A stretch of 64,000 nt of DNA. Origin: Candidatus Firestoneibacteriota bacterium (GTDB lineage: Bacteria; Oederibacteriota; D2-FULL-39-29). Under the pieces are notes generated by a model, which worked only from the letters and a program-made list of their open reading frames with translations, was not told the DNA's origin and searched no databases. This document shows, piece after piece, positions 5,693 to 61,365 of the stretch (its first letter is position 1; every line of letters begins with the position of its first letter). Made by a program: the position numbers and the translations under genes. The stretch is from assembly GCA_903928075.1 (NCBI GenBank), contig CAIYPD010000076.1, forward strand, positions 10,292-74,291, given 5' to 3'.

Positions 5693-5711
5693 AATATATC
5701 CTTTTCCTCCG

Positions 5712-14249: not shown

Positions 14250-15488
14250 TTACCCCTCCGTTATCTTCCTTACAATCCCCACCCACTTCTTCAATCTGGA
14301 AACATCGCCTTGAAGAGTCTCAACATCTTTTAATGTAATGTGCCAGTAACTTTCCTTGAAGGCGTCCTTTGCGTCAGTGATTATCCTTTTTATCCGGTCT
14401 TCATCCCAGGAGGTGCAGACCATATCGGTGGGATTGGGCCTGAAGGAACAGATGTAATCTTTTTTTATCTGTTCGGCGCATTTACGATAGTTAGCAACCG
14501 GCGTCACGGCAATGCTTCTCAAGTTCTTTACCTTCCGGAGCATATCTATTTTTTTTGTAAGATCCTCACAGCACCCGTAATGCGTCATCGCAAATTTTTC
14601 CATTATCGGCTGCTGGTACCGGAGCATAAATTCGTCATGAAACTCCGGCGAGACCAGCGTCAATTCCTGAGAGGCCATAAAGCCCCAGAGCTCTTTTCTC
14701 TTTGAGGGCGTATTGGGTTTGCGCCAGGGAAGCTCATTGCAATACGGCATTGCCTGGTTACCGCTCATGGTCAGCGTAAAATGCCCCGCCTCCTCCGCCT
14801 CCTGCTGATTCGTCAGTATCCCATCCCGCATAAAAGCCAGGAGTTGATGCAGTTCCTTCGGACTCTCGTACATATCCAGCATCATCTGCTCAAGCCCCCG
14901 GATATTAGCCAGGTCAGTGGAAATATCCCCCATAAAGCCAAGATACGCAGGGCCCCTTATTATATCTATCGGAATTATTTTACCTATCGCTTCGGCAAGT
15001 CTGTTATATTTTCTTTTTGTATCCTCTTCGTCTATCGCATGGTGCAGGGCTTTGATTTTTCCAATATCCTTCCAGTCTTTTATAATAGCATCAAGATGAA
15101 ATGCGCCGCCTTTCTGGGCAGACTTCGTCATCTGCCGTTCAACTCCCCAGTGATTATCCCAGGTCCCTTCCCGGGTTCCGGCAAGTTCTATCCAGGGCTC
15201 ATTTACGGCATCATGCCCGGTTTCTTCTGATAAAAGCCGAAATTTAAATGTCCGTTCGTAACCCCTGAAAAACTCATCTTCACACGCCATGTTTTTATCA
15301 GAAAACATCTCCTTACACCAGGCCTCCCAAAATCCGTTATTCAATAGGATGGGCGGCCGCGTTTTCTTTTTATTAAAATGGTCGCTCCAGAGCTTCCTTC
15401 TTTCTTCCTGAATAGGCTTAGTCGCAATTTCCATATATTGCCTGGCAAGGTCCTGTACTATTTTAATATCTTTTTGATTAGTAGGCAT
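14250..15488 (-). CDS. uncharacterised ~415-aa paralog family 'c' protein (copy 1 of 3), partner of the URO-D-like gene
   Basis: Shares with 50337-51608 and 57450-58706 an N-terminal P(V/I)Q(K/E)E...LW motif. Also shares a C-terminal YGCCE(D/P)L(T/D)KKI...R(K/S)I(A/S)V(T/S)P(V/W)A...DY(I/V).S and (H/P)(I/V)EFI(L/I)KD. SD AAGGAGA upstream. Confidence 0.6.
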   Translation of the reverse strand: MPTNQKDIKIVQDLARQYMEIATKPIQEERRKLWSDHFNKKKTRPPILLNNGFWEAWCKEMFSDKNMACEDEFFRGYERTFKFRLLSEETGHDAVNEPWIELAGTREGTWDNHWGVERQMTKSAQKGGAFHLDAIIKDWKDIGKIKALHHAIDEEDTKRKYNRLAEAIGKIIPIDIIRGPAYLGFMGDISTDLANIRGLEQMMLDMYESPKELHQLLAFMRDGILTNQQEAEEAGHFTLTMSGNQAMPYCNELPWRKPNTPSKRKELWGFMASQELTLVSPEFHDEFMLRYQQPIMEKFAMTHYGCCEDLTKKIDMLRKVKNLRSIAVTPVANYRKCAEQIKKDYICSFRPNPTDMVCTSWDEDRIKRIITDAKDAFKESYWHITLKDVETLQGDVSRLKKWVGIVRKITEG

Positions 15489-15852
15489 CTAATCTCCTTT
15501 GTATAGATAACAAGACCAAATGTACAGCAAACAGCTAACGGATGTACGGCTAATACCTTCTTTCTTTTGCTGTCTGCCTTGCATCCAATCCTCCGCTCTT
15601 CTATCTTTCACTTTGTACCTTGTCCTCCAAAGAACTTCTTTGGAGAGATCTCGCCTAATGGCGGATACTTCGTACTTTGTACTCTTGTTATCTTGTATTC
15701 TTCTCTACTCTTGCCAACCCTCTCCGCCAAGTTTGCTTGGCGAGATCTCGCTGTAAGCGGACAACCATCCACTTTTCCGTCCTCAGTCCTCCGGCTTCTG
15801 GCCTCATGTTTTCACTCTTGCCAAGCCTCTAACCATCCAAACATCCAATCCT
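15489..15852. repeat. repeat-rich 364-bp spacer with palindromic REP/MITE-like units
   Basis: Perfect 10-bp-arm palindrome CTCCAAAGAA-C-TTCTTTGGAG at 15626-15646. Two copies of (palindrome)-AGATCTCGC-(TAATGGCGGA / GTAAGCGGACAACC). Internal direct repeats CATCCAATCCTC at 15581 and 15841. Related unit at 41481-41580. Confidence 0.7.
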
Positions 15853-16923
15853 CTATCTATACTTGCCGTAGTTCTTTGCTGTTTCATACATCGCGAGCAC
15901 ATTTTCTGTCGGCGAATTATCCTGCAGAGCGTGAGTAGGCGCAAAACAATAACCGCCGCCCGGCATCATAATATCCAGCGTTTTTTCACAATATTTTACG
16001 GTATCTTCAACCTTACCAAAAGCCACAGGTCCGGCCGTACTTATACAGCCGTGGAAAGCAAGACGCCCGCCGAATTTTTTCTTTAAATACTCGGGGGACA
16101 TATTTGCCGCTTCCGGCTGGAGGGTATCCACCACATTTATGCCCATCTCAATAAAATCTTCATAAGCCCAACTACTGCTACCGCAGGTATGAATCATCAC
16201 AGGAAGCTTAAAACTTTTAGCCATGTCTATTATTTTTTGATGAAAAGGCCTGATTGCTCTTCTATATAGTTCCAGGCTTATCATCGGCGCAATCTGGGTC
16301 CCCAGGTCTTCCCCCATCCATAAAAAATCTACAGCGCCCTTAGCGGCTTCAATGGTCCGTCTGGTTATTTCGAGGTTAATATCGACCCTGCGCTTTGCCA
16401 GAAGCAGCCCCGCCGGTTCATCCGTCATAAGGTCAACTAAAACCTGTTCCATTCCCCGTACCATTCCGCTTGAATTAATAATGTCGCCGAGTCCGGCTCC
16501 GCCCACATATAGAGCATACTCTTTATTCTTTTTGCAATGTTCCTGTACCCCGGAAAAATCAAATTTGTCCGGATCCGGCATCGGCCAGTTAGCCACCTCT
16601 TCTTCCGTGGCATTCTGTAGCGGGAAATCACAAAAATCAAGGTAACCTCCGCTCTCATGTTCTATCCAGCGTGTATGCATACCCCAGTCGTTTACCTTCA
16701 CCCCTCTTTCAGGTATATCCTTATGAAGTTTTGGCCCAAGATATTTTGTCACTCCAACCCCGCGAAAATCCACGCCCAGCACATTTATGAGTTCATCTCC
16801 GTCTTTGACCTTAAAATGCTTTATAAGCCTCTCGTTTATGCCCGGATTGGCCGCGTAGTTTATCGGCACCCGGTCCGGTGTTCTATTCGCAAAAGTAGTG
16901 AGTACGCGTTCTTTAGAATTCAT
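15853..16923 (-). CDS. URO-D family protein, subfamily b (likely start at 16923, ORF track extends to 16953)
   Basis: MNSKERVLTTFANRTPDRVP family signature. HTCGSS (HxCG) segment. C-terminal MMPGGGYCFAPTHA. SD AAAAAGGAG 7 nt before the ATG. Confidence 0.8.
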   Translation of the reverse strand: MNSKERVLTTFANRTPDRVPINYAANPGINERLIKHFKVKDGDELINVLGVDFRGVGVTKYLGPKLHKDIPERGVKVNDWGMHTRWIEHESGGYLDFCDFPLQNATEEEVANWPMPDPDKFDFSGVQEHCKKNKEYALYVGGAGLGDIINSSGMVRGMEQVLVDLMTDEPAGLLLAKRRVDINLEITRRTIEAAKGAVDFLWMGEDLGTQIAPMISLELYRRAIRPFHQKIIDMAKSFKLPVMIHTCGSSSWAYEDFIEMGINVVDTLQPEAANMSPEYLKKKFGGRLAFHGCISTAGPVAFGKVEDTVKYCEKTLDIMMPGGGYCFAPTHALQDNSPTENVLAMYETAKNYGKYR

Positions 16924-16941
16924 TTTTCTCCTTTTTATCAG

Positions 16942-17037
16942 CTTCTCCGCCACAAAGTGTTGGCGGATTTCGCTATGCTCAACTTCTCATAATTCATCTT
17001 GTTTTTCTTCTATCTATTATCTATTGTTCCATTATTC
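16942..17037 (-). repeat. conserved 5' leader, copy B (paralog of 5712-5800)
   Basis: About 90% identity to copy A by eye. Sense strand encodes a 19-codon upstream ORF MNYEKLSIAKSANTLWRRS ending at a TGA just before the SD. Contains a CCGCCA..TGGCGG hairpin. Confidence 0.7.
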
Positions 17038-18813: not shown

Positions 18814-18881
18814 CAGGTGCCGTCCTTAAATTATAGTCGAAAGAAGTTTAATAAGTATCATTCCCGCCGCAAAAAGCAGTA

Positions 18882-22280: not shown

Positions 22281-23401
22281 CAGACAGTTTTCCCTTTTTC
22301 GGCTTCTTTTCTTTCTTTCACCCAGGAAGAAATCTCCTTAAGCCTTTCAATTATATTGATATGCTGGGTGCATTTTTCTTCGCAGACCCCGCATTCGGTA
22401 CAAAGGTCCGCCTGCTCTGGCGCCACATCCCAGTGCCATTTCATCTGTCCGAAATAATTTTCCTTACTTTCAAGTATGGTCTGATTATACGCCAGCATGT
22501 GTTTTGAAACCTCTATCTCCTGAGGACAGAACTCGCAATACCGGCAGCCGGTGCAGAGCTTATCCATCCCGATACTTAATTTTCCCTGTATCTCCAGTTT
22601 TTTGCTTTCAGGGAAGTCCTTTATCTTTTCCCCGGCTTTTACATTTTCAAGAACCTCCGCCACGGTTCCCATCCCGCAGATATTGGTGGTTATTTCTTTT
22701 TGAGAAACTAAAAATCTAAGAGCCGCGTCCGCCGGTGTTGCATCATCGGTGTTTTTCAGGTATTCAAAGAGTTCCGCTCTTTTTGGTATCAAGCCGCCGC
22801 TCAAAGGATTCATCACCACCACGCCCAGGCCGTGGTCATACGCTGCCTTTATACCTTTTTGCCTGAAAGGGAAATTAAGAATATTGTACCCCAGGGTAAC
22901 CCCCTCAAAAACATCATCTTTAACAATAAGTTCTATCTCTTCGCCGGTGCAATGCGTGGAAAACACAATATGCTCAATCAGCCCTTCCTTTTTAGCCTGC
23001 ACGGCAGCCTCATAAGACCCGCCTTTCTTCATTCTTTCTTTATAATCCGCCAGGGTCTTAATGCTCCAGATATTGAAAAAGTTTATTTTTTTCAGATTAA
23101 AGCGTTTCAAGGATCTTTCGAGTTGTTCCCTGACGACAGCCCCTTCCAGCGCGCCGCTTTTTGTAGAAACATAAAACTGCCCCGGCATCTTTTGGAAAGC
23201 CCGCCCGAATATCTGCTCACTGTTATCTGCGCAATAGCCCGGAGCTGTATCAAAATAATTCACCCCGCACGCATTGGCTTTTTGGACCACCCCGGCACAT
23301 TTATCATAATCATATTTTCCGTTTTCAGCAACAAAGCGCATTCCTCCGAAACCGATAACAGATATTTTTTTTCCTGTTTTACCATACTGCCTATATTGCA
23401 T
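22280..23401 (-). CDS. aldo/keto reductase fused to a 2x[4Fe-4S] ferredoxin-like domain
   Basis: AKR N-terminus YRQYGKTGKKISVIGFGGMRF. C-terminal CTGCRYCEFCP and CTECGVCEEKC clusters. Confidence 0.8.
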   Translation of the reverse strand: MQYRQYGKTGKKISVIGFGGMRFVAENGKYDYDKCAGVVQKANACGVNYFDTAPGYCADNSEQIFGRAFQKMPGQFYVSTKSGALEGAVVREQLERSLKRFNLKKINFFNIWSIKTLADYKERMKKGGSYEAAVQAKKEGLIEHIVFSTHCTGEEIELIVKDDVFEGVTLGYNILNFPFRQKGIKAAYDHGLGVVVMNPLSGGLIPKRAELFEYLKNTDDATPADAALRFLVSQKEITTNICGMGTVAEVLENVKAGEKIKDFPESKKLEIQGKLSIGMDKLCTGCRYCEFCPQEIEVSKHMLAYNQTILESKENYFGQMKWHWDVAPEQADLCTECGVCEEKCTQHINIIERLKEISSWVKERKEAEKGKTV

Positions 23402-50336: not shown

Positions 50337-51608
50337 CTATTTTTTCACAATTTTCATCACTGTATCGGCCCATTCGGTAAGTCTTTTTGGTTCGTAGTTT
50401 ACCGTGCTCAAGTCCTTAAGGATGAATTCTACCGGGGTGCCGTTCTTTTTACAGTCAGTTATCACATCTTTTGTATCTTTTATTATGGCATCAAGTTCAA
50501 AGTTACCCCTGGAGAAAAACGCTGGGCTGGATTTCCTGGAAATCACATAATCCTTGCCAATCTGTTCCGTAGCATTTTTTACATCAGCCCAGGGACTTAT
50601 AGAGATTTTTCTCACATTGGGAAGTTTCCTGATAACCCCGATTTTTTTATCCAGCGGTTCACAGCAGCCGTAATACACGAGGCCAAACCTCTCATACCAT
50701 TTCTTGGCGTATTCTATCTCAAATTCGTCGTGCATAGCAGGCGAAGCCGTGGAAAATATCTGCGCCATCCCGAAGGTCCAGGTATCTTTTGCCCTGGGTT
50801 TTGCCGGGTCAAAGCCGGTCCCGATAAACTTTTCAAGGAAGGACGGCAGTTCGTTGGTATGGGCACCAGAGCAATGGATGGTTCGGAACCCGTAACCCAG
50901 CAAACCCTGCGTTTCCAACTGGTCCAGCCCTGCAAGGTACGCTTCCGAGAATCTGGAAATTATCTTGTGCATGAATTCCGGCCTTAGCGCCATGTCAAGA
51001 AGCAGCTCCCCCGCCCCGCGAAGCATTACTATAACATCCCATACCGGAAAGCCGTACATTATCCCTTCTTTTTTTACTTCAATTACCCCGGTAAAGATTT
51101 CCTGCATTGTTTCAAAATCTTTCTCGGTTTTCTCCTTGTTCAGCCTGATGGCGGGATTTTTTATTTTTTGAATATCTTCTTCTTCCTTAATCTGGTCATT
51201 GTAGAAGTGCCCCACGACATCATTATTAACATCGGTCACGGCCTTTTCTGTTTCCTTAACCTTTATACCAAAATCCCACCCTTCGACAACCGGGGAGGAA
51301 CGCAGAACCGGCTCTATTACCATATCTGTCCTGAAATGCTTCCACTTATAAAGTTCGCGCCTTAACTTTGTTTCTATATTCCGGCAGAAGGGGTCAGAGG
51401 TCTTTAATGTTAACTCCCCTTCAGCGTTCAATTCATGCCACGGCAGTTGATCTATCATGACCATCGGCCGCACCGGCTTTAAACTGTTTATGGCTTTCCA
51501 AAGGGTAATCGTCTCCTTTTGTACGGGAAGTTCTGCTATTTCTCTATACTTTTTACCCAGCTCCCTGAGTATCCCCTTGTCTTGCGCGCTTATTGAAATC
51601 ATTTCCAT
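50337..51608 (-). CDS. paralog family 'c' protein (copy 2 of 3)
   Basis: ELPVQKETITLWKAINSLKPVRPMVMIDQLPWHELN ... YGCCEPLDKKIGVIRKLPNVRKISISPWAD ... PVEFILKDLSTV. SD AAAAAGGAGA. Confidence 0.6.
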   Translation of the reverse strand: MEMISISAQDKGILRELGKKYREIAELPVQKETITLWKAINSLKPVRPMVMIDQLPWHELNAEGELTLKTSDPFCRNIETKLRRELYKWKHFRTDMVIEPVLRSSPVVEGWDFGIKVKETEKAVTDVNNDVVGHFYNDQIKEEEDIQKIKNPAIRLNKEKTEKDFETMQEIFTGVIEVKKEGIMYGFPVWDVIVMLRGAGELLLDMALRPEFMHKIISRFSEAYLAGLDQLETQGLLGYGFRTIHCSGAHTNELPSFLEKFIGTGFDPAKPRAKDTWTFGMAQIFSTASPAMHDEFEIEYAKKWYERFGLVYYGCCEPLDKKIGVIRKLPNVRKISISPWADVKNATEQIGKDYVISRKSSPAFFSRGNFELDAIIKDTKDVITDCKKNGTPVEFILKDLSTVNYEPKRLTEWADTVMKIVKK

Positions 51609-51695
51609 TAGATACGGTCTCCTTTTTAAGTCAATAACAGATTACTATCTGTAATACTTCTCAACCGTCTTTTATCAGTTATCATCCATATTTTA

Positions 51696-52732
51696 TTATT
51701 TATTATAGGTTCCAAACTCCCTTATAGTCTCGCACATCGCAAGAACATTTTCTATGGGGGTCGCCTCCAGAACAGTATCATGACTGGCCCCCGCCACATA
51801 CCCGCCGCCCGGCATCATTATTTTCAGTATTTCTTTTGTCCTCTCCCTTACTACCTCAGGGGTGCTTTCCATCAGTATATGGTGGGAATCTATACCGCCG
51901 TTGAAGACTATTTTTTTCCCGTAATTATTTTTCAGTTCAACAAGGTTCATCCCGACACAGGTCGTCTGTACGGCATGTAAAGCATCCAGGCCGACACTAA
52001 TCAAATCTGGAATCAAAGGCTCAATACCTCCACAGCAATGAAGCTGGACTTTAAGTTTATAGGCGTGTCCTAGATCTATAAGTTTCTTAAAGTGAGGAAG
52101 CAAAAATCGCCGGAATTGTTCCGGGCTTAAAAGCGGGCCGTTCTGACTCCCCAAGTCGTTCCCCATGAAAAAAATATCAATATATTTTCCGGCCGTATCA
52201 AATGTTTTTTTATTTACTTCAAAATAGAAAGAGGAAAGATGTTCGAACACCGCGTCCACAATCTCAGGTTCGTCGTACATCTTTAGGCAGAGGTTTTCCA
52301 TTCCAAAAAGATCAATGGCTTCATGCCAGAACGGAGACCAGAACCCGCCCATAATCGCATATTTCCCTTTGTGTTTTTCCGCCTGCGCTTTTATCCCCGA
52401 GGCGTCAAACCATTTCGGATCCGGCCAGGCATAAGCATGCACCTCTTTTAATGTTGCATTTGCGAGCGGATGATTAAGCGGTTGACCGCAGCCCACTCCC
52501 GCGCGTTTGATTCCGAGCCTATTAACGCCGTCTTTTAAGTCCGGGCCAATATCAGAAGCATGAACGGCCCTGAAATCATCTTCAAGCATCTGCTTTAGTC
52601 CTTCATCATCAAGGGAGAGCTTCTTTTGCATCCCTTCCCACATCTCGCGGGAAGCCCCAAACCAAAGCGGTACCCGATCCGGCTCCTCATGCGCAAAAGC
52701 AGTTAATACCCGTTCCCTCGAAGTCATCACCA
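51696..52732 (-). CDS. URO-D family protein, subfamily b (start at 52732, ORF track extends to 52805)
   Basis: MTSRERVLTAFAHEEPDRVP. LHCCGG. MMPGGGYVAGASHD. SD GGAGGAAATATTATG. Confidence 0.8.
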
Positions 52733-52915
52733 TAATATTTCCTCCAAAATAGATAGATAACAAGCTAACAAGACGACAAGATAACAAAGTTAAAGCAAAT
52801 AGCAAATTACTGAATTTCTTTATTGTTTTTGTACTCTTATTTTCTTGTATTCTTTTATATTTTATTTTATTTATTAGCCAATTAGAAATTAGTAATCAGA
52901 AATTCGAGACGGCGT

Positions 52916-54217
52916 TTATTGAACGCCGTCGACCCACACATGTCCCGCCCCGAGCCTCTGGCTTGGCTTAGACTCACATTCCAGAGCAATGACCGTCATA
53001 TCCTTATCCGGCGGGTTCACAGGCAGGTCGTAAAGATGGAGCCGTTCCGTCGGCTTGAAGGTCTGTTTAAACTTAACCTTTTCGCCGGTACTGACTATCC
53101 GGGCACTGCGTACCTTCATCTGCAGACCGCCTAACCAGAGTTCTTTACCGTACCAGCGGGTAATATGCCAGTACATAGTATTCCCCTTGGCGGTTGCCGA
53201 GGTCCCGTGCGGATTGAAGTTCATCCATTCGGTATTAACTCTCTCGGTTCCGTAAATAGATTCTCCGTTATTGTTGCGTTTAAGCCAGTCTCCCATTCCG
53301 CGAAGACTGGAAATTGCTTCTTCTTCAATAGAGCCGTCGCCGCGAGGGCCGACATTTAATATAAAATTACCTCCGTTTCCGGCGCAGGAGACAAGTTTTC
53401 CCAGAAGATTAGGAACGCTCTTCCATTCCTTGTCGGCCTTATTCCAGCCCCAGGAGCCGTTCAAGGTATCACAACTTTCCCAGTCCCGGTAATCCGCGCT
53501 TGCCCTGGTTGAGTTTTCGGGTGTGTCAAAATCCTCCGGCATCAAAGAACCCTCTACACCCCAGCCCGACCTGTTATTTATAAGTATCTGCGGTTGAAGC
53601 GACCTGACCATATAATTTAATTTTGTTGAGTCCCAGCCATTGGGTTTAAGCGGCCACGGTACATCGTAAAAGAGATAGTCTATCTTTCCATAATTCGTCA
53701 TAATTTCACGGACCAGGCCGTGAGTGTAATCAACGAATCTTTTGCGGGCTTTTAAGTCATGCAGGCAGTTGGCGCCGTCAGGATGATGCCAATCCATCAA
53801 ACTATAATAAAGCCCGACATGCAGGCCTTCGGCGCGGACCGCCTCGACAAACTCGGCCACAATGTCCCGGCGCGCCGGAGAATTTACGGAAGTATATTTT
53901 GTAAGTTTGGAATCAAAAAGACAAAAACCTTCATGGTGCTTGGTGGTTAGGGCAACATATTTCTGGCCCGACTCTTTTGCCAGTCTGGCCCAGGCTTTGG
54001 GGTCAAATTTTTCGGCTGTGAATTTTTTAGCCAGTGCTTCATACTCTTTAACAGGAATCCGCTCCCGGTTCATCACCCACTCATGCCGGCCAAGAATACT
54101 ATAAAGGCCCCAGTGGATAAACATACCGAACTTGGCCTCTCTAAACCAGGCCATCCTCTCACTCAGTGAAGGGATTCCGCCTTTTGAAAGCTGAACCTGC
54201 TTACTCGTTTTTTTCAT
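52916..54217 (-). CDS. alpha-L-fucosidase (GH29), no signal peptide
   Basis: WFREAKFGMFIHWGLYSI ... YVALTTKHHEGFCLFDS ... YYSLMDWHHPD, the GH29 hallmarks. SD AAGGAGAGAG. Confidence 0.9.
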   Translation of the reverse strand: MKKTSKQVQLSKGGIPSLSERMAWFREAKFGMFIHWGLYSILGRHEWVMNRERIPVKEYEALAKKFTAEKFDPKAWARLAKESGQKYVALTTKHHEGFCLFDSKLTKYTSVNSPARRDIVAEFVEAVRAEGLHVGLYYSLMDWHHPDGANCLHDLKARKRFVDYTHGLVREIMTNYGKIDYLFYDVPWPLKPNGWDSTKLNYMVRSLQPQILINNRSGWGVEGSLMPEDFDTPENSTRASADYRDWESCDTLNGSWGWNKADKEWKSVPNLLGKLVSCAGNGGNFILNVGPRGDGSIEEEAISSLRGMGDWLKRNNNGESIYGTERVNTEWMNFNPHGTSATAKGNTMYWHITRWYGKELWLGGLQMKVRSARIVSTGEKVKFKQTFKPTERLHLYDLPVNPPDKDMTVIALECESKPSQRLGAGHVWVDGVQ

Positions 54218-54262
54218 TGCTCTCTCCTTTTTTTATATTTCATCATCTATTATCTATTGCTC

Positions 54263-55291
54263 TTATGGCGGAGTTATCTTTCCGTCTAAATCCCACAGGT
54301 CTTCCCAGGTTTGCCCCTCTTTCCAAAGAAAAACCTGACCTTTTATCAGTCGGCAATTTTTATCTATATCCGCTATTTCTTTCATCTCCTCATTAGTAAG
54401 CGGAGCGGAAAGCACTGCTTTTAGATTACTCAAATATTTAGAACGGTTCACGGAAAAAGGTATCACGACCTCCCCCCGCTGAACACCCCATTTAACACAA
54501 ACCACCGCAGGATGGACTTTAAGCCTTTCTGCAATTTTCACAATGACGGGGTCTTCAATATCTACTGTGTCCGCAGGGGTTTTATCCCGTTCGGGACGCT
54601 TGGGCGAGCCGATAGGACTGTAACCTATAGGAATTATCCCCGCTTTCACAACAAAATCATAAAGCTCCGCCTGCTGTAAATGAGGATGTAATTCCATTTC
54701 CCCGCAGGACGGTTTTATCTTAGCATCTCGAAGTAGAAGTTTCAGTTTCGGAATGGTCATATTAGATGTTCCGATATTTTTTACCAATCCCCGCTCTACC
54801 AGTTTTTCGAGCTGCCTCCAGGTCTTCATATAGTTTTCATGGATGTAAGCTTTTGCATTTTTATCGCGCGAGGAAACGCTTACGCCTTTAGCATGGCTGT
54901 TGGGGAAAGGCCAGTGTATAAGATAAAGATCAAGATAGTCCAGCTGCAAATCTTTAAGCGACTTCTCACAAGAAGGCCCTACATCTTTTTCGGCGTGTTT
55001 ATCATTCCATAACTTTGAAGTGATCCACAACTCTTCGCGCTTGACCCCGCTCTTTATCGCCTCTCTCAAGACCGGGCCTATTAAATGTTCATTGCCGTAA
55101 ATAGACGCACAGTCAATATGTCGGTACCCCAGGGCTATTGCATCTTTTACCGCGGCCGCGACCTCTTCTCCCGGGTAACAATCTGACCCAAAAGTTCCCA
55201 GCCCTACTACCGGTATTTTTGCGCCTGTACGCAGCGTCTTACTTGGAACCTGTTTTGGGTCAACTGCTTCTTTACTCAAATTTAAACTCAC
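54263..55291 (-). CDS. aldo/keto reductase
   Basis: IPVVGLGTFG ... GYRHIDCASIYGNE ... AKR catalytic tetrad context. 342 aa. Confidence 0.85.
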   Translation of the reverse strand: MSLNLSKEAVDPKQVPSKTLRTGAKIPVVGLGTFGSDCYPGEEVAAAVKDAIALGYRHIDCASIYGNEHLIGPVLREAIKSGVKREELWITSKLWNDKHAEKDVGPSCEKSLKDLQLDYLDLYLIHWPFPNSHAKGVSVSSRDKNAKAYIHENYMKTWRQLEKLVERGLVKNIGTSNMTIPKLKLLLRDAKIKPSCGEMELHPHLQQAELYDFVVKAGIIPIGYSPIGSPKRPERDKTPADTVDIEDPVIVKIAERLKVHPAVVCVKWGVQRGEVVIPFSVNRSKYLSNLKAVLSAPLTNEEMKEIADIDKNCRLIKGQVFLWKEGQTWEDLWDLDGKITPP

Positions 55292-55303
55292 TAATTCCTC
55301 CTC

Positions 55304-56365
55304 CTACTTTACTTCTTCGTCAAAAACTATAGCGACCTTACCGCATTTTCCTTCCGCCATTAATTTATAAGCCTCATCGGCCTTATCCAGAGTAAACCTG
55401 TGGGTGACAAGGTCTTCGGGATGGAGTTTCCACCTGACCAACCGCTCCACAAGTTCTTCCATAAGCCAGATGCTGGTGACCCAGGAACCATAAATTGTCT
55501 TTTGCTCATGAATTATATCCGGGCTGGGATTAAATTCCACGGTTCCGCCTTCTCCGACCAGCGCGATTTTTCCCCACTTACAGGTTGCCCGTATCGCCAG
55601 CTGCCGGCCAAGGGTGTGCCCGGAACAATCTATCGCACGCTCAACACCTTTGCCCTTTGTGAGTTCCAAAATTTGTTTCAAAGTATCCGGCCCGGAAACA
55701 AGCACATGTTCGGCAAGGTTTCTATCTTTAGCAAGTTTGCAGCGTTCAGCTGTAACATCAACGCCTATAAGCATATTCGCCCCCAGGGCTTTTGCAAGCA
55801 TCAAGGTAGCAAGCCCGACCGGACCTAAACCCACAACAAGCACGGCATCATTTCCGCAAATACCTATCTTCTGCAGGCCTTCATAAACAGTTCCGAAGCC
55901 GCAGGCTACCTGCGCTCCGTCCGTGTAAGTAAGTTCGTCCGGTAAAAGTACACAGTCTTTTTCCTCCGCAAGAATATAAGGCGCCATCCCGCCGTCTCTC
56001 TGCCAGCCGTAGGCGGCGCGATGAGGACTGGTACAACTGATCATATAACCTCTGCGGCAGTCGTTGCAGACCCCGCACCCGGAAATATGGTAAAGCACCA
56101 CCCGGTCATTATTTTTGAATCTTCTCAGCCCGGGCCCGCATTTTATAATCTGGCCTGCAGGCTCGTGGCCGGCGATTTTATTCTGATAACCCTCGGGACC
56201 TTTCCCCAGGTGTTCGCGATAGATAGCGCGAATATCACTGCCGCAGATGGTTGAGGATTTCGTTTTTATCAAAACCTCGCCATACCCCGGCTCGGGAACC
56301 TCTACCTCTTTCAGTACCACCGTACTGTTACCCGGCAAATATGCTGCGGTCATAGTATTTTTCAT
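55304..56365 (-). CDS. zinc-dependent medium-chain alcohol/polyol dehydrogenase
   Basis: [14 protein letters not shown]. Structural-zinc [15 protein letters not shown]. Rossmann VGLGPVGL. Confidence 0.85.
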
Positions 56366-56448
56366 ATAAGAACCATCCTTTAGTTAGAGCGATTTTCTTT
56401 TGCCGTACTTCCATTCATCCGACCTTCCGCCCCTCTGTCCTTGCTCCT

Positions 56449-57453
56449 CTATCTTGGCGTCTCGCAAAATGCTTTCAAGACTTCATCTTTCGTTTCCGCC
56501 GGAATCTCGCAGCCGGCGCTTAACATATACTTCGTCCCTTCAGCTATTTTCATGCACGCCCGCGCCTTCTCTGTGCAGTCAGTTACCGAGGCATTCATAA
56601 TGTCTGCAACCGGGTTAAGATTTCCTTTATAACATTTATTTTGCGAACCATAAACCTCTTTTGCTTTTAGCAAAGGCACCATGTGGTCCACATTAAAAAG
56701 ATCTGCCCCGGAATCAACCATATCGGGAAGTAAAGCCGTAGTGTTCCCGCAGATATGCAGTTTCACCGGACAATTTGCGTTGTGAATGGCCGTCGTTACC
56801 TCTTTTTCATAGGGCAGGGCAAACTCCCGGTACATAGAAGGTGAAATCAAAGAAGCCGCGGCATCCCCGCACCCGATCATATCGGCCCCGGCTTCAACCT
56901 GCGCAAGCGAAAAATCAATTACTACTTTAGTCAGGAACGAGAGAAGCCGGTGCGCCAACGCCGGCTCATCATTTATCATAATCATAAAGTTAGTTATACC
57001 GCAGATTGAACAGGCTTCTGTAAAAGGCATATCCACCCAACCGAGAACCGCTACTTCGCCCCCGGCCCCCTTAACCATTTCTTCTACGGCAAGCACCCTG
57101 TCTGCCATTCTCCCTTTTTTTCCCTTAGGGTCGGGCCTGCCTAATTTATTCAAATCAGCCGCGGAAGAAATTATAGGTTCTACGGCAAAAGGCGGTTTTT
57201 CTTCGGGATAAGCCATCTTTGCCCCTAAGTCCGCTGAAACCCTGAACGCATCAGAACAGGAGGTAATGGCGTCAAGTTCAAATCTTTTTTGAATGAAAAG
57301 CTGCGCGGCGGCCATAGACCTGCCGTTAGTTGCAAATTCTTTATAGGTAATCCCGAAACGGGCCGCAGGTAAAAACATCAGGAGGGGAAACACGGGAATT
57401 CTGTCCGTCTTTTCCCCTCTAACACAGGCCAGAAACCGTTCGCGGCTCTTCAT
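56449..57453 (-). CDS. MtaA/CmuA-like methyltransferase (URO-D family, subfamily a)
   Basis: 334 aa. MKSRERFLACVRGEKTDRIPV. LHICGN. AGCEIP C-terminus, close to MT2-type methylcobamide:CoM methyltransferases. ATGA overlap with the upstream family-c gene. Confidence 0.8.
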   Translation of the reverse strand: MKSRERFLACVRGEKTDRIPVFPLLMFLPAARFGITYKEFATNGRSMAAAQLFIQKRFELDAITSCSDAFRVSADLGAKMAYPEEKPPFAVEPIISSAADLNKLGRPDPKGKKGRMADRVLAVEEMVKGAGGEVAVLGWVDMPFTEACSICGITNFMIMINDEPALAHRLLSFLTKVVIDFSLAQVEAGADMIGCGDAAASLISPSMYREFALPYEKEVTTAIHNANCPVKLHICGNTTALLPDMVDSGADLFNVDHMVPLLKAKEVYGSQNKCYKGNLNPVADIMNASVTDCTEKARACMKIAEGTKYMLSAGCEIPAETKDEVLKAFCETPR

Positions 57454-58706
57454 TGTTCTTCTGCCATTTCGCAGATCCTTTTAGAGAGTTCCCACAATCT
57501 CTCCGGGTGATAACTTACCGTGGAGATATCTTTTATTATAAACTCTATGTGACATTTTTTATCTGCCCGTTCAAGCACTTCCCTGACTTCTTTTACGGCG
57601 GTTTCTATGTTCCAGGTATCCCCGGCAAGAGTTGCAGGATTTATCTTATAACTTATCACATAATCCCCGCCAATATTTTGTAGAGCCCTTTCTTTGTTAG
57701 CCCAGGGACTGACCGAGATTTTTCTGAGATTTGGGATTCTTTTTAAAATATCAATTTTCCTGTCAAGCGGCTCGCAGCAGCCGTAATAGTTCCTTCCCCA
57801 CTTCTGCAGCCAGGGTATATCATGCTTGAGAGCAAATTCCCAGTGCATCTCCGGCGATACCTCAGAAAATATCTGGGCATTTGAACAGCCCCACATATTA
57901 TGAGGACGGACACAATTCGGATCATAATTTTCCCCGGGCAGCTCTTCCGTATAACCATAGCCTCCGGAACCCGTTCTACGGGCATTCCCCAAAGAAAGAA
58001 GATTAAGTTTTTCATACTGCTCAAGTTCCGCCATGCAGGACTCCGCCACCCTGGCGACTGCGGCATTGACAAAATCAGGCCGGTCGAGCATATCAATCAT
58101 CGCTTCCTGAATTCCGTACCAGCGCACCAAAAAATCCCAGGGCGTATACCAGATATGCTGTACTCCGGTTTTTTTTACCGGCAAGATATCTTTGTAAACT
58201 TCGCACATGACCTTGTAGTTTTTATCTGTCTGTTCCTTATCATAAGTCACAACCGGAAGTTTTATTTTTTTCAGGTCCTCGTCCTTTGCAATCTGTACTT
58301 TGAAATGCCGGGAAACAACACTGCTTTCTTTGTCGGTTTCAACAACATCAACATTTTCCTCTATGCCAAAACCCGTACTATGAACAACCAGCGGACAAGT
58401 TAAATATTCATTCACCGTCATATCTGCGGGCATATGCTGCCAGGTGTATAAGGTCAGGCGCAAATCAAGCTCCTGCTTTCTGGCCCAGGGGTCCATGCTT
58501 TGAAGCGTTAATTCATTATTTACATTCATCTCATGCCACGGAACTTCACTTATGAGCACCATAGGCCGCTCGGACTTAAGGTCATTTACCTTTGACCAGA
58601 GCCGTGCTTTTTCCTTCTGGACGGGAAGTTTAGCTATAGCCGCAAGCTTTTCTGCCAGACCACGGAGTACTTGAAGATCCTTTTCGGGAATTTTCAGGGA
58701 TTCCAT
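57450..58706 (-). CDS. paralog family 'c' protein (copy 3 of 3)
   Basis: KLPVQKEKARLWSKVNDLKSERPMVLISEVPWHEMN ... YGCCEPLDRKIDILKRIPNLRKISVSPWAN ... HIEFIIKDISTV. SD AAAGGAG. Confidence 0.6.
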   Translation of the reverse strand: MESLKIPEKDLQVLRGLAEKLAAIAKLPVQKEKARLWSKVNDLKSERPMVLISEVPWHEMNVNNELTLQSMDPWARKQELDLRLTLYTWQHMPADMTVNEYLTCPLVVHSTGFGIEENVDVVETDKESSVVSRHFKVQIAKDEDLKKIKLPVVTYDKEQTDKNYKVMCEVYKDILPVKKTGVQHIWYTPWDFLVRWYGIQEAMIDMLDRPDFVNAAVARVAESCMAELEQYEKLNLLSLGNARRTGSGGYGYTEELPGENYDPNCVRPHNMWGCSNAQIFSEVSPEMHWEFALKHDIPWLQKWGRNYYGCCEPLDRKIDILKRIPNLRKISVSPWANKERALQNIGGDYVISYKINPATLAGDTWNIETAVKEVREVLERADKKCHIEFIIKDISTVSYHPERLWELSKRICEMAEEQ

Positions 58707-58787
58707 TAAAACACTCCTTTGTTTTTAATACAAGCCCGGGGGCTTATTAATGCTTCCAAAACAACTTGACCGGAAGGAAATAATTAT

Positions 58788-60284
58788 CTATTCGGTCAGG
58801 GTAATTCTCCATTCTCTGGTGCTGTCATTCATCGTAAACCTTACACGGTAGTCCCCTTTAAGCGCCTTGCCGGATTTATCCGTTCCGTTCCACTTCATAT
58901 AGAACATGTCATCGGCTCTCTTGGCGTCAAGACTGCCTATTTCAAACAAAGAGGTATTTCCGTCTTTGCTGAATAGAGTTAACTTGACCGTACCTTTGGC
59001 CCTTACCTGACAGCCAATCTTAATCTCTTCGCTTTTACCCGCAGAAATATGCGAAGGAATACAAACCGCCATACTAATATCCCTGCTCGGAAAGACCGGA
59101 ATATCCGGAAGTACGACTTGGCCTATAACATTCCTTCTCTTGAAAGACGGGGGTTCTTTGCAGGTAACATTTTTAAAATAGGCCGCCTCCACTTCATTAT
59201 TATTGCCTTTCTTTATCACGGCCGCATAAATTTCTCTTATCGTCGGGTCAAACTCCGCCAGGGACGGCCATAAAGCTCCGGCATCGCCGTCCGAGCCTGT
59301 AGGCGTCCCATTTGAACTTTTAAAATGTATATCGGTCAGGGATTTATTCCACATCCAGAGATTTGAATTAATTATCTTCTTCATATCCTCTTCACTGAAA
59401 ATCAGACCCGCATGATAGGCTTCGACAAAAGTAGCGCTTTCGAGTGCCTGATAGCCCCCTCTATAGGAGTGCACATCCACCCAGGACTGTGTTTTCGCCC
59501 CCTTCCAGTCGAAAGGCGCAAGCGGTTCCCAGAAATTCCAGAAATACCGGTCTTCGTCCTTGTGGTATCTCATTATGGACTTGTAATGACTGAATATTTT
59601 TTCCGCCCGTTCCTTAAACATTGTTTCGCCCGTTATCCGGTAAAGTTTGATAAAGCAGACGGCCATCTTGGCGTGCTTGTTCAGGTTCTCGCTCCATTTT
59701 TTACCAGCCAGAGACCTGAGCTGGTTTGTTTTCCTGTCAATGATAATGCCGGTATTCAAATAGGAAGCAAACATCCCGTCTTCATAGTAGCCGCCTCTTT
59801 TATCCCATTTTTCTATCAAAGTTTTTCTGGCCAGAAGAATGTATTTTTCTGCTTTCGCGCCAAGGGGAGAACTCTTTAGCGCCGGGTCTTTCATAACTAT
59901 TTCGGAAAAAGCCAGCATGGGATCAATTAGATTTGCGTCTCCGACAACTACTGAACCTATTTCCGGTTCCAACCCGAAGTAGGGGCCGACCCAGCCCATA
60001 TACCCATCCGGTTCTTTATCCATTTTTGATATTAAAAAATCATAATAAATCGCAGCCTCTTCCAGCCAGGTTTTATCTTTTCCGTAAGCGTAGTAGCCCT
60101 GAATAAAGCCGGCAACCGAAAACTGGGCGTACCAGGAAAACATCTCCCCTTTGCTTGTTTGAATATCCTTTTTTGCCATAATACCTTCACGAAAACTTTT
60201 GGCGGTCAAACAATAGGCATTATTTGCAAGACCTAAAATAACGGCTAGAACTGCCGTCAAAACTACGGCATACTTCTTAATCAT
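58788..60284 (-). CDS. secreted hypothetical protein, possibly (alpha/alpha)6-barrel glycosidase/lyase-like with a C-terminal beta-sandwich domain
   Basis: Signal peptide MIKKYAVVLTAVLAVILGLANNAYC. Helix-rich middle. Beta-rich C-terminal 100 aa. No family motif recognised. Confidence 0.4.
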   Translation of the reverse strand: MIKKYAVVLTAVLAVILGLANNAYCLTAKSFREGIMAKKDIQTSKGEMFSWYAQFSVAGFIQGYYAYGKDKTWLEEAAIYYDFLISKMDKEPDGYMGWVGPYFGLEPEIGSVVVGDANLIDPMLAFSEIVMKDPALKSSPLGAKAEKYILLARKTLIEKWDKRGGYYEDGMFASYLNTGIIIDRKTNQLRSLAGKKWSENLNKHAKMAVCFIKLYRITGETMFKERAEKIFSHYKSIMRYHKDEDRYFWNFWEPLAPFDWKGAKTQSWVDVHSYRGGYQALESATFVEAYHAGLIFSEEDMKKIINSNLWMWNKSLTDIHFKSSNGTPTGSDGDAGALWPSLAEFDPTIREIYAAVIKKGNNNEVEAAYFKNVTCKEPPSFKRRNVIGQVVLPDIPVFPSRDISMAVCIPSHISAGKSEEIKIGCQVRAKGTVKLTLFSKDGNTSLFEIGSLDAKRADDMFYMKWNGTDKSGKALKGDYRVRFTMNDSTREWRITLTE

Positions 60285-60363
60285 ATTTACTCCTCTTTTC
60301 GCAATATTTTTTTATTATCTATTTTTCAATTTTGTGGTTATTTGAAATTTGCAGTAATATTCT

Positions 60364-61365
60364 TTATTTGCCGCTGTCTTTTATGGCTCTTTTCATTGCC
60401 AGAAGATTTTCTTTCGGAGTGTTGACCGTAATTTCACAACCGCCCGATAAAATAAAAGGCCGCCCCTCTTCTTTTTTTATTAATTCTTTTGTTATCTTAT
60501 AAACCTCTCCGGCAGAAAGGCGCTCTATTACGCTTACCGGATCAATATTGCCGCAGCGAATGATTTTCTCTCCAAAAACAGCGTAGAGTTCATCCATCTC
60601 AACCATCCAGTCTACATCAACAATGTCGGGTTTTAAACTCTTCAAATCCGGGACCAGATGCTTAATGTTTCCGCAAATATGAAGTTTTACCTTAGCCCCG
60701 AGGGTGTGAATATAATCTATTAATTCCTTATGCCTGTTAAAAATAAATTTCCGGTACATCTCTGCGGATATCTGCGAGCAAATTGCGTCCCCGACGCCGA
60801 TAATATTAGCCCCATTTTCGACCTGGGCTTTTGCAAAAGCTTTTCCGGTTATCAGACATTTATCCAGCAGTATTTTTGTGAGCTCTTCGTCGGTTGCAAG
60901 GAGCATAAGCATCTCGGTGACACCCATAAGATCGCAGGCCTCGGCCAGAGGTCCTTCCACCCAGCCGATTACATCTACTTCCGGTTTTACGAGCTTCCTG
61001 TAATACTCTACGCCTTTTATTCTATTTAAAGTTCTTTCACAGTTATAGACTTCCGGGGTTTTTAGCGTTTTTATATCTTCCCCGCTTCTCACTACTTTTT
61101 CGACACAATGCGGTACGCCTTCCGTTTCATAAATCATCTTTGCGCCAAAAGCAGAAGTCTCGCAGTAAGGGTCAGAAATAACAGAAACTGCATCGGTTTC
61201 AAAATATTCATGACACTTCATATTAGTTTCCACCAAAACGCGGTAATCTGAAGCAAATTCTCCGTAGGTCTTTTTTGAAAATCTTGCGGCAAAATGCATG
61301 AGAATGGGATGAAATAAGGTGCGTTTTGTATCAATACTTTTTGGCTTTTCCACCATTGAATGCAT
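60364..61365 (-). CDS. MtaA/CmuA-like methyltransferase (URO-D family, subfamily a), second copy
   Basis: 333 aa. LHICGN. GVGDAICSQISAEMY. SGGCEI C-terminus. Paralog of 56449-57453. Confidence 0.75.
   Translation of the reverse strand: MHSMVEKPKSIDTKRTLFHPILMHFAARFSKKTYGEFASDYRVLVETNMKCHEYFETDAVSVISDPYCETSAFGAKMIYETEGVPHCVEKVVRSGEDIKTLKTPEVYNCERTLNRIKGVEYYRKLVKPEVDVIGWVEGPLAEACDLMGVTEMLMLLATDEELTKILLDKCLITGKAFAKAQVENGANIIGVGDAICSQISAEMYRKFIFNRHKELIDYIHTLGAKVKLHICGNIKHLVPDLKSLKPDIVDVDWMVEMDELYAVFGEKIIRCGNIDPVSVIERLSAGEVYKITKELIKKEEGRPFILSGGCEITVNTPKENLLAMKRAIKDSGK

Follow-up and report, generated by a model that had tools for sequence, protein, structure and literature searches.

Genes of the fucosidase island

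The window analyzed here, a stretch of 64 kb from a Candidatus Firestoneibacteriota bacterium, contains an 11-kb island (50337-61365) that is a cytoplasmic operon for the use of fucose or a fucose derivative. Its nine open reading frames (ORFs) all lie on the minus strand, with a promoter-like site upstream of the first (61430-61402, minus strand). The string opens with U3 (60364..61365), an MtaA-like protein of the URO-D family (PF01208, 4.3e-56), followed by a secreted (alpha/alpha)6-barrel protein that resembles glycoside hydrolases and carries a beta-sandwich at its C-terminus (58788..60284). Next come A2 (57450..58706), a 418-aa member of a URO-D-fold family without annotation and our candidate for a methyltransferase of the MT1 type, and U2 (56449..57453), an MtaA-like protein with a His-x-Cys...Cys triad (PF01208, 3.8e-72). 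A Zn-dependent oxidoreductase of polyol/sorbitol-dehydrogenase type (55304..56365; ADH_N and ADH_zinc_N), an aldo/keto reductase (AKR) of aldose/aldehyde-reductase type (54263..55291; PF00248, 3.5e-53) and a GH29 alpha-L-fucosidase (52916..54217; PF01120, 2.2e-91) precede U1 (51696..52732), a URO-D-family protein with a His-x-Cys...His triad (PF01208, 2.2e-28). The string is closed by A1 (50337..51608), a 423-aa paralogue of A2 (38% identity, E 1e-110).

The fucosidase scores 307 bits against the PF01120 cut-off of 25.2, and its N-terminus has no hydrophobic leader. We take it to be cytoplasmic because it has no evident signal peptide. The best PDB matches of the Zn-dehydrogenase are threonine and sorbitol dehydrogenases, and the AKR matches aldehyde reductases (4gac and 2alr, 4e-70) and aldose reductases (around 1e-59). 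Orthologues of the Zn-dehydrogenase (68-91% identity) are co-located with those of U2 and the AKR in loci L083, L102/L103, L116 and L131, so that an aldose/aldehyde-reductase-type AKR and a sorbitol-dehydrogenase-type Zn-MDR are conserved together beside U2. The two enzymes would most plausibly take L-fucose through L-fucitol to L-fuculose and so bypass FucI by a polyol route, or else they may handle lactaldehyde.

The five URO-D-type genes reported in a preliminary description of this DNA are correct for the island, and the enrichment is larger than described there, as the whole window has eight. The other three are also on the minus strand: U5 (15853-16953; PF01208, 7e-13; 32% identity to U1), the third A-family copy, A3 (14250-15488; 28% identity to A1 and 26% to A2), and U4 (4574-5767; PF01208, 2.8e-16), a divergent protein in which Asp-x-Asp...His replaces His-x-Cys...Cys. 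Every A-type gene of the window is paired with a U-type gene: there is a 4-nt overlap between A2 and U2, while A1 neighbors U1 and A3 neighbors U5. The U5/A3 pair (14250..16953) adjoins a DUF6259/DUF5696 glycosidase-like gene and sulfatases. The Cys-type sulfatases (CVPAR, CLPSR) and the anaerobic maturase mentioned in the preliminary description were found again in the window, the latter as an anSME-like radical-SAM/SPASM gene.

Family scores and motifs of the URO-D-fold proteins

The proteins belong to the URO-D/MtaA/MetE-like TIM-barrel superfamily, either by a PF01208 match or by a URO-D-type fold. The matches of U1, U2 and U3, together with the predicted structure of A2, which is a URO-D/MtaA barrel, bear out the fold proposed earlier, and the nine ORFs have the coordinates given there. 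The U1 match is confined to the C-terminal two thirds of the ORF (51696-52805). Gene callers on sister contigs start at the 345-aa position, in agreement with the start previously placed at 52732. None of the three reaches the curated cut-off of TIGR01463, the MtaA/CmuA family (235.4 bits): U2 scores 167.4, U3 139.4 and U1 77.4 bits. The two MtaA-like proteins, which share 36% identity, are also below the curated cut-offs of NF040654 and NF041608. Many U2 orthologues bear the JGI label 'MtaA/CmuA family', despite the sub-cut-off TIGR01463 score of U2.

U2 is 27.5% identical to MtaA of M. mazei (4ay7), and its HICGN / NVDH / GCE segments align with HICGN / SVEE / GCG of the latter. In this alignment, U2 D256 stands opposite the MtaA Glu and U2 GC315 corresponds to the MtaA GC. 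The motif His-x-Cys...(Glu/Asp)...Cys of MtaA is a zinc site, whose acidic residue is exchangeable. H233, C235 and C315 of U2 are 100% conserved among 81 orthologues. The HICGN...GGC of U3 aligns with the His-Cys-Cys positions of U2 and MtaA, such that U2 and U3 keep all of these. U1 and U5 share the motif His-x-Cys...His, and H256, C258 and H342 of U1 are kept in 10 out of 10 orthologues.

The A-type family is more distant. A1 and A2 have no sequence match in Pfam, NCBIfam or PDB, and the profile-profile match between the A family and U2 is weak (probability 24%). The active site is remodelled: the His of MtaA is absent, an invariant Cys-Cys-Glu is located at a barrel strand end and, judging from the alignment, only C311 would stay at a position of the MtaA site. 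This family without a Pfam model counts over 3,000 representatives when clustered at 50% identity, and in one of its proteins an NPCBM carbohydrate-binding module is fused to the A-type domain.

Genomic context of the orthologues

Around 160 loci were fetched for the neighborhood survey, including 69 of A2 orthologues from at least 8 phyla. Orthologues of A2, U1 and U2 are found at 55-66% identity across many phyla (55-62% for U1), and we found no orthologue of U3 among these loci. Their neighbors are GH29 or GH95 fucosidases, fucose-type transporters, RhaM mutarotases, or the genes of three different fucose catabolic routes. The link to fucose made in the preliminary description is real and is conserved well outside this genome, with GH29 present in 25 of the 69 A2 loci (at most two genes away and on the same strand in 15). 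The same 69 loci have 10 MFS, 9 SSF, 6 RhaT and 14 sugar-ABC transporters, 10 RhaM mutarotases and 6 GH95. U1 orthologues adjoin A2 orthologues and GH29, as in the cultured Anaerohalosphaera lusitana, where the order is GH29-A2-U1-SSF-RhaM. U2 orthologues occur in FucI / aldolase-SDR / FGGY-kinase / AOR operons, next to GH95, or with ZnADH, AKR and GH29. The third route, lactonase/dehydratase, was seen in L049. Since the URO-D-fold genes accompany all three routes, they should act upstream of the point where these branch.

The orthologues come mainly from MAGs of freshwater, peat, soil, sediment and gut, and the algal fucoidan and galactan setting suggested earlier is not needed. Judged by taxon labels, the term 'anaerobic' does not apply to the family either, because A2 orthologues are carried by Acidobacteriota, Planctomycetaceae, Chloroflexia and Akkermansiaceae, with aerobic lineages among the carriers. 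The suggested O-methyl sugar substrate found no backing in GH139, the 2-O-methyl-fucosidase family, of which no member was found beside A- or U-type genes. Our literature search returned no paper tying the A and U families to sugars.

In line with the preliminary description, the window lacks a corrinoid protein and an activator. No B12-binding Pfam domain was found in its real ORFs of at least 150 aa, phmmer with a bona fide corrinoid protein gave no match at E<=1 in the six-frame ORFs of at least 60 aa of the whole window, the 64 kb have no cobalamin riboswitch, and Pfam scans of the window revealed neither an activase nor a Pterin_bind domain. Hence, no corrinoid protein (PF02310 + PF02607) is encoded with the methyltransferase-like genes in the 64 kb, unlike in three-component systems. 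Similarly, some 95% of the fetched loci have no corrinoid protein nearby. It does occur near orthologues in 5 independent loci of about 160, a raw count without a control set. In L120, an A1-type gene (43% identity) is followed after 22 nt by a corrinoid protein and, 37 nt further, by a U2-type gene. The Bacteroidales locus L028 has, on one strand, GH29, A2, an MFS protein, a transporter, a PfkB kinase, a corrinoid protein and a pterin-binding methyltransferase, the only Pterin_bind protein seen among the orthologous loci. The Chloroflexia locus L049 reads A2, Amidohydro_2, Gfo/Idh, corrinoid protein and URO-D, and has a second corrinoid protein with DUF1638. In L055, A2 lies 1 kb from a corrinoid protein with DUF1638, and in L133/L134 an Amidohydro_2 - corrinoid protein - URO-D string lies about 8 kb from U2. 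None of the five belongs to the PVC group, of which this bacterium is probably a member. The occurrence of orthologues in fucose clusters and, in five loci, beside B12 carriers makes B12-dependent sugar demethylation a testable, if unproven, idea.

Candidate functions and related systems

Our preferred reading, to which we give somewhat less than an even chance, sees the URO-D-fold proteins as a module for corrinoid-dependent methyl transfer, with a methylated fucose-type sugar as its substrate. We infer the methyl transfer, its substrate, the MT1 and MT2 roles and the metal. GH29 would free the sugar from imported oligosaccharides, and the module would take the O-methyl group off a methylated 6-deoxyhexose, most likely an O-methyl-L-fucose, which would open the sugar to catabolism. 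The A-type proteins, with their Cys-Cys-Glu, may be the substrate:cob(I)amide methyltransferase (MT1). With their His-Cys-Cys(+Asp) positions, U2 and U3 could transfer the methyl group of methyl-Co(III) to an acceptor that is probably a thiol, or they might be further MT1s. Genes for the corrinoid carrier and for the reductive activase of this carrier would lie elsewhere in the genome. Several observations count against this reading: the lack of corrinoid components and of a cobalamin riboswitch in the 64 kb, the small share of loci with a corrinoid protein, the missing MtaA His in the A family and its weak profile-profile match to U2, the sub-cut-off scores of U1, U2 and U3, the NPCBM fusion, the absence of GH139 beside the genes, and the carriers whose taxon labels point to aerobic lineages. 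An SN2 demethylation by Co(I) is chemically demanding when the methyl ether is alkyl and not aryl, and to our knowledge methanol (MtaB) is the only known case.

Known demethylation systems resemble the island in part. Corrinoid O-, S- and halogen-demethylases belong to the UroD superfamily (PMC10418091). In the three-component O-demethylases of acetogens and Desulfitobacterium, MT1 (e.g., OdmB or VdmB) is a UroD-superfamily barrel like the A and U proteins, and the role is in principle the same, as a methyl ether is removed and what is left of the molecule becomes open to catabolism. The other components of these systems, namely the corrinoid protein, the MT2 of pterin-binding type and the activating enzyme, are all lacking in the window; L028 has the full O-demethylase logic (an A2-type protein, a PF02310-like corrinoid protein and a Pterin_bind protein). 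They act on aryl methyl ethers, the presumed substrate here being a sugar (alkyl) methyl ether, and are carried by acetogens, in contrast to the glycan degraders of many phyla that carry the A and U genes. In contrast to the acetogen MT1, no Pfam model covers the A family, which has a Cys-Cys-Glu motif of its own. The methanogen methylcobamide:coenzyme M methyltransferases MtaA, MtbA and MtsA (4ay7) have the fold of U2 and U3 and an alignable HICGN...D/E...GC, but the MtaA system has an MtaB/MtaC partner that the island lacks, and coenzyme M synthesis by a bacterial glycan degrader is unlikely. In marine Bacteroidota, 6-O-methyl-D-galactose is demethylated aerobically by a cytochrome P450, through an O2-dependent hydroxylation that releases formaldehyde. 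The role proposed for the island is the same, namely to take an O-methyl group off a polysaccharide-derived sugar before central catabolism, although chemistry, protein family and sugar differ.

The absence of a corrinoid protein from the window and from about 95% of the loci makes a function without methyl transfer a serious rival, if a somewhat less likely one. Here, fucose metabolism would have re-used the URO-D TIM barrel for enzymes, cofactor-independent or metal-dependent, that could be isomerases, epimerases, hydrolases or lyases of L-fucose, L-fuculose or fucosides, and the corrinoid neighbors would be unrelated systems. This would suit the position of A2 orthologues next to transporters, GH29 and mutarotase, where the enzyme that starts a catabolic pathway is usually encoded, that of U2 between FucI and the aldolase/kinase genes, the carriers aerobic by taxon label, and the remodelled active site that lacks the MtaA His. 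The NPCBM fusion also counts here, as it would be just as fitting for some other sort of enzyme that acts on glycans. Zinc sites of the Cys2His type can moreover serve hydrolysis or redox chemistry, with cytidine deaminase and alcohol dehydrogenase as examples. Yet the gene order of L120 and the same-strand string of L028 are hard to put down to chance, U2 and U3 match MtaA at precisely those positions, the exchangeable acidic residue among them, that are a hallmark of alkyl-transfer zinc sites, and the loci with FucI, kinase and aldolase have no obvious missing step for such an enzyme to fill. In a cobalamin-independent, MetE-like transfer, which we consider improbable, a zinc-activated thiol or other nucleophile at U2/U3 would take the methyl group directly from the A-bound sugar, and a corrinoid carrier would not be needed. 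The pairing of A and U genes, the lack of a corrinoid protein in most loci and the lineages aerobic by taxon label are compatible with it, as is the membership of cobalamin-independent methionine synthase in the UroD superfamily (PMC10418091). Five loci nevertheless have a corrinoid protein, one of them between an A and a U gene, and because such corrinoid-linked loci exist, the cobalamin-independent option raised in the preliminary description has become less likely. Nor do we know of a case in which a thiolate takes a methyl group directly from an alkyl ether.

The remaining alternatives are less likely still. U2 and U3 are very unlikely to be Mlps of methyl-sulfur or methyl-selenide metabolism that are in a fucose operon by accident. 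The 27.5% identity of U2 to MtaA exceeds the 25% Mlp criterion of Kountz and Balskus, and type 1 mlp clusters have, like the island, several clustered MtaA-like UroD-superfamily paralogues in non-methanogens, with no H4folate methyltransferase (PMC10418091). Those clusters are restricted to obligate anaerobes, have proposed methyl-sulfur or methyl-selenium substrates, and lack the glycoside hydrolase and sugar context that the island has (PMC10418091). They are recognized by the joint presence of Mlp2 and Mlp3 orthologues, a corrinoid protein as well as an activase (Ram/RACE; PMC10418091), and the island lacks the last two. Furthermore, many unrelated lineages show the same fucose setting around their U2 orthologues, which is therefore not incidental. 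As for HemE, the uroporphyrinogen decarboxylase of tetrapyrrole synthesis, the equivalog TIGR01464 has a cut-off of 302.95 bits, and U2 (108.2), U3 (83.4) and U1 (24.0) miss it, with no match for the A proteins. These curated-model scores effectively refute HemE. HemE and the A/U genes differ in motifs, copy number and context: the aligned UROD lacks His-x-Cys...Cys, the 64 kb contain eight copies, with no other heme genes nearby in Pfam scans, and the conserved setting is fucose metabolism.

Overall, the preliminary description is partly supported. Its methyltransferase reading gains independent support from the five corrinoid loci, with DUF1638 and one pterin-binding methyltransferase, and from the residue positions of U2 and U3, while its O-methyl sugar is a pure supposition. 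It is conceivable, at odds of roughly one in three by our reckoning, that the families form a widespread and unrecognized B12-dependent sugar O-demethylase, in which A-type proteins would be methyl-sugar:corrinoid methyltransferases working with MtaA-like partners within fucose regulons. If so, the module would be spread over Planctomycetota, Verrucomicrobiota/Kiritimatiellia, Lentisphaerota, Acidobacteriota, Bacteroidota, Spirochaetota, Chloroflexota and Armatimonadota, and would allow these bacteria to demethylate, with no need for O2, the methyl-ether deoxyhexoses of glycans from plants, algae and microbes.

A nine-gene string around a GH29 fucosidase

The fucosidase island consists of nine genes arranged head to tail on the minus strand, from 61365 to 50337, with intergenic gaps of 12-180 nt. 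In transcription order they encode U3 (60364-61365), a secreted protein of 498 aa (58788-60284), A2 (57450-58706), U2 (56449-57453, whose start overlaps the A2 stop by 4 nt), a Zn-dehydrogenase (55304-56365), an aldo/keto reductase (AKR, 54263-55291), a GH29 fucosidase (52916-54217), U1 (51696-52732) and A1 (50337-51608). The dehydrogenase, the reductase and the fucosidase have clear-cut assignments in Pfam and NCBIfam. A promoter-like site closely precedes U3 and another precedes the next gene, which encodes an M48 peptidase, but since such sites are no more numerous than in shuffled sequence, the arrangement is only consistent with a single operon. A 524-aa FAD-dependent protein (PF21688, COG2509-like; 61522-63096) is encoded directly upstream of U3, a place that it keeps on all sister contigs.

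In line with the preliminary description, we did not identify a corrinoid protein in the window. Pfam scans of the ORFs of at least 150 aa revealed no B12-binding domain, phmmer with a verified corrinoid protein gave no match among all six-frame ORFs of at least 60 aa, and no Rfam family, cobalamin riboswitch included, was detected. The sister contigs extend the right flank by a few kb, with an MFS transporter, another Zn-ADH, an AP_endonuc_2 TIM barrel and a citrate synthase, and we found no corrinoid protein on this extension either.

The AKR most resembles aldehyde and aldose reductases of animals and plants (4e-70), and the Zn enzyme has its nearest matches in threonine and sorbitol dehydrogenases; both are co-conserved with U2. 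FucI is absent here. Since an aldose reductase followed by a polyol dehydrogenase is the standard oxidoreductive path from aldose to ketose, the pair could convert L-fucose to L-fucitol and then to L-fuculose in place of FucI; alternatively, it may serve the reduction of lactaldehyde. The secreted protein combines an (alpha/alpha)6 barrel and a beta-sandwich, with best matches to GH76, GH105, GH88 and AGE epimerases. It belongs to a small family, found in a relative among carbohydrate esterases and not among URO-D genes, and we treat it as a separate extracellular glycan module.

URO-D-fold proteins of the window

The preliminary description reported five genes of the URO-D/MtaA superfamily, an observation that was correct and conservative: with U4 (4574-5767), U5 (15853-16953) and A3 (14250-15488), the 64 kb hold eight URO-D-fold genes. 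Each A gene is paired with a U gene (A2/U2, U1/A1 and U5/A3). U1, U2 and U3 do match the URO-D model (PF01208), but their scores are well below the curated NCBIfam cut-offs for HemE, which excludes this identity, and also below those for MtaA/CmuA. A1 and A2 have no match in Pfam, in NCBIfam or among the PDB sequences.

At the positions of the MtaA triad, the alignment places His-x-Cys...Cys in U2 and U3, His-x-Cys...His in U1 and U5, and Asp-x-Asp...His in U4. The aligned His/Cys/Cys residues of MtaA are presumably the zinc ligands of the 4ay7 structure; our literature search returned nothing on them. U2 is 27.5% identical to MtaA of M. mazei, with its HICGN opposite the HICGN of MtaA, D256 opposite a glutamate and GC315 opposite GC. 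None of these residues varies among 81 U2 orthologues, and the orthologues of U1 all keep its His/Cys/His triad.

U4 is a divergent URO-D protein and adjoins a GalT-like gene (DUF4931/DUF4921, 3404-4405). A3 and U5 are part of a second glycan cluster (12100-21543), together with a DUF6259/DUF5696 glycosidase-like gene (12100-14181), two Cys-type sulfatases (17290-18813 on the plus strand, with CVPAR, and 18974-20452, with CLPSR) and an anSME-like radical-SAM/SPASM gene (20449-21543). At 22280-23401 a 4Fe-4S dicluster domain is fused to an aldo/keto reductase.

The A family has more than 4,400 homologues in a word-indexed search, and an exhaustive profile search gave 3,238 representatives of clusters at 50% identity, of which 850 reach E<=1e-30. 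A1 and A2 are 38% identical, and the best match of A3 is in Pontiellaceae. Taken with the sulfatases and the anSME gene, this match points to a PVC-like anaerobe as the probable source of the window. Comparison of the A and U2 family profiles gave only a weak local match, and because matches at the sequence and profile levels were thus absent or weak, the fold had to be taken from a model; generic TIM-barrel glycosidases ranked last among the matches to it. Residues invariant in the three window paralogues and their orthologues include C310-C311-E312 (in YYGCCEPL), K392 and D393, which are predicted from the secondary structure of the model to lie at the C-terminal ends of barrel strands. Among the best 150 representatives there is no natural fusion with a B12 domain, the sole fusions being a frameshifted artefact and one with a carbohydrate-binding module. 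The latter, a 595-aa protein of the representative library (P0349), carries an N-terminal NPCBM/NEW2 module and suggests that at least some members of the family bind glycans directly.

Fucose genes near orthologues in other genomes

We fetched 80 genome loci with A2 orthologues (54-63% identity) and grouped the neighbouring ORFs called in them into clusters, whose representatives were then annotated. These loci come from Planctomycetota, Verrucomicrobiota, Lentisphaerota, Acidobacteriota, Bacteroidota, Spirochaetota, Chloroflexota, Armatimonadota and other phyla. All fetched loci, the U2 set below included, were picked via conserved peptides, which biases them towards close orthologues; ORF calling in them was crude, with some genes hidden by antisense ORFs in contigs of high GC. 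The co-occurrence with GH29 put forward as a check in the preliminary description was found: among the 69 loci with an intact anchor ORF, 25 have a GH29 gene (15 within two genes on the same strand, the definition of the second figure hereafter). Transporters are represented by FucP-like MFS (10 loci; 10), SSF (9; 5) and RhaT-type (6; 5) proteins and by sugar ABC systems (14; 3). Other neighbours are RhaM-family mutarotases (10; 5), GH95 (6; 1), PBP+AraC regulators (18; 5), orthologues of U1 (55-62% identical to the window copy; 11; 7) and a further conserved URO-D type of about 395 aa (17; 6). The latter subfamily (e.g. L049, 13924-15111) has an invariant His-x-Cys...His triad and lacks a close orthologue in the window. 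In the cultured planctomycete Anaerohalosphaera lusitana, where the A2 orthologue is STSP2_03230, the order is GH29-A2-U1-SSF-RhaM.

Metagenomes provided 80 loci with U2 orthologues (56-78% identity), most of them on contigs shorter than 4 kb. On the longer contigs, U2 is found with GH29 and orthologues of the window Zn-dehydrogenase (68-91% identical) and AKR (59-81%). Other U2 genes lie in classical fucose operons with FucI, an aldolase-SDR fusion, a class II aldolase, an FGGY kinase and an aldehyde:ferredoxin oxidoreductase, or adjoin a true GH95 fucosidase. In L049, a Chloroflexia locus, the A2 orthologue is accompanied by a lactonase-family amidohydrolase, a Gfo/Idh/MocA dehydrogenase, a UxaA-type dehydratase and an enolase-superfamily dehydratase, which we take to match the non-phosphorylative fucose route. 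The accessory families are thus common to three different fucose catabolic routes, which argues for an action on the sugar before these routes diverge.

GH139 is a family of 2-O-methyl-fucosidases (PMC12282258), and no member was found near these genes. The large neighbours of A2 were considered as candidates and none is GH139: that of L044 (1,114 aa, DUF4450) has no PDB match, that of L031 (839 aa) is a distant relative of GH95, that of L098 (805 aa) is a true GH95, and the others are GH2, GH3, rhamnosidase-like, or HEAT with a 3-keto-disaccharide hydrolase. DUF4450/GH116-like proteins of about 1,110 aa, lacking a PDB relative, occur directly upstream of A2 orthologues in MAGs of Rikenellaceae and Bacteroidales (L044, 6565-9909; L051, 4726-8082; L033, 19369-21249), and distant relatives of 1,060-1,400 aa are present in Verrucomicrobia and Pontiellaceae loci. 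Locus L033, from a Bacteroidales MAG, carries after its A2 orthologue and an MFS gene a 750-aa protein (12859-15111) that joins a membrane di-iron domain of the FA_desaturase type to a Rieske domain and an FNR-type reductase; this protein could be an oxygen-dependent counterpart, e.g. an ether or methyl oxidase.

Corrinoid neighbours and a proposed methyl transfer

A regex match in L133 was confirmed as a true corrinoid protein by Pfam (PF02310, 9e-28; PF02607, 4e-17). Using it as the single query of a phmmer search over the 1.87 Mb of fetched DNA, we identified corrinoid proteins in six loci that represent five independent cases, a count that stands without a matched control and hence without a probability; none is in the fetched loci of the PVC group. 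In L120, a gene of the A1 type (43% identical to the window A1) is followed after 22 nt by the corrinoid protein and after another 37 nt by a U2 orthologue (60%). By analogy, this is the classical order of substrate:corrinoid methyltransferase (MT1), carrier and methyl-corrinoid:acceptor methyltransferase (MT2). In L028 (Bacteroidales), one strand carries GH29, A2 (57%), MFS, a sugar transporter, a PfkB kinase, a corrinoid protein and a pterin-binding methyltransferase, i.e. the gene set of an O-demethylase of the acetogen type in which A2 takes the place of MT1. An in-frame TGA (15218-15220) stands in its corrinoid gene (14801-15493) where a hydrophobic residue is conserved, which may reflect recoding, a pseudogene or a fault of the assembly. 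The corrinoid link is strongest in L120, for its operon-like spacing, and in L028, for its composition. L049 has A2, the amidohydrolase, Gfo/Idh, a corrinoid protein and the 395-aa URO-D protein, plus a second corrinoid protein with DUF1638; in L055 a corrinoid protein and DUF1638 lie 1 kb from A2; and L133/L134 have an amidohydrolase, a corrinoid protein and a URO-D gene about 8 kb from U2. DUF1638 is directly beside the corrinoid-protein genes in both Chloroflexota loci (L049, 567-2082; L055, 6441-7914) and may be an accessory of corrinoid systems.

The UroD superfamily includes corrinoid-dependent O-, S- and halogen-demethylases, CoM methyltransferases and MetE (PMC10418091). The best-supported reading, which we hold tentatively, is that the URO-D-fold genes of the island form a corrinoid-dependent methyl-transfer module serving fucose utilisation. 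This reading draws on the fold, on the intact MtaA-type triad of U2 and U3, on the pairs of A and U genes, on their place ahead of three fucose routes, and on the corrinoid, DUF1638 and pterin-binding neighbours in five loci. The proposal of the preliminary description is thus partly supported: its methyltransferase part has gained genomic support, while its substrate and algal framing are not established. O-methyl-fucose would be the obvious candidate, and a methyl group at O-2 in particular would block isomerisation, but the genes have no GH139 2-O-methyl-fucosidase near them.

The main rival, which we judge somewhat less likely, is that the same barrel serves fucose metabolism in a methyl-independent enzyme. 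It is favoured by the absence of corrinoid proteins from about 95% of the loci, by the remodelled site of the A family and by the NPCBM-A fusion. Some carriers are, moreover, aerobic by taxon label, which also leaves the qualifier 'anaerobic' of the preliminary description without a firm basis. A cobalamin-independent methyl transfer like that of MetE is less likely still, and so is a role in methyl-sulfur metabolism of the Mlp type. The mlp clusters of Kountz and Balskus (PMC10418091), the nearest described system, always have a corrinoid protein and an activase, belong to obligate anaerobes and lack a sugar context. We found no literature linking the URO-D/MtaA or A families to fucose, fucoidan, PULs, methylated sugars or sugar demethylation. 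If methyl transfer is right, this would be a variation on the theme of corrinoid O-demethylases in which both the MT1 family and the class of substrate are new and the genes are dispersed.

Sugars with O-methyl groups are found in marine dissolved organic matter, in the RG-II of pectin, in galactans and fucans of algae, and in moss and microbial exopolysaccharides. To our knowledge, the only described sugar demethylation is that of 6-O-methyl-galactose by an oxygen-dependent P450, and we know of no described route for sugar methyl ethers in anaerobes and most other glycan degraders. A methyl-transfer module would thus identify missing sugar-demethylating enzymes, give a function to several large families now labelled 'hypothetical' or 'uroporphyrinogen decarboxylase family', and widen corrinoid O-demethylase chemistry from aryl to alkyl methyl ethers. 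In the communities of gut, soil, peat and sediment, it would also tie the breakdown of glycans to C1 metabolism and to a demand for B12. Should methyl transfer prove wrong, it still holds that three or four unstudied enzyme families of strong conservation belong firmly to fucose metabolism, and cultured carriers exist for them, such as A. lusitana with STSP2_03230.
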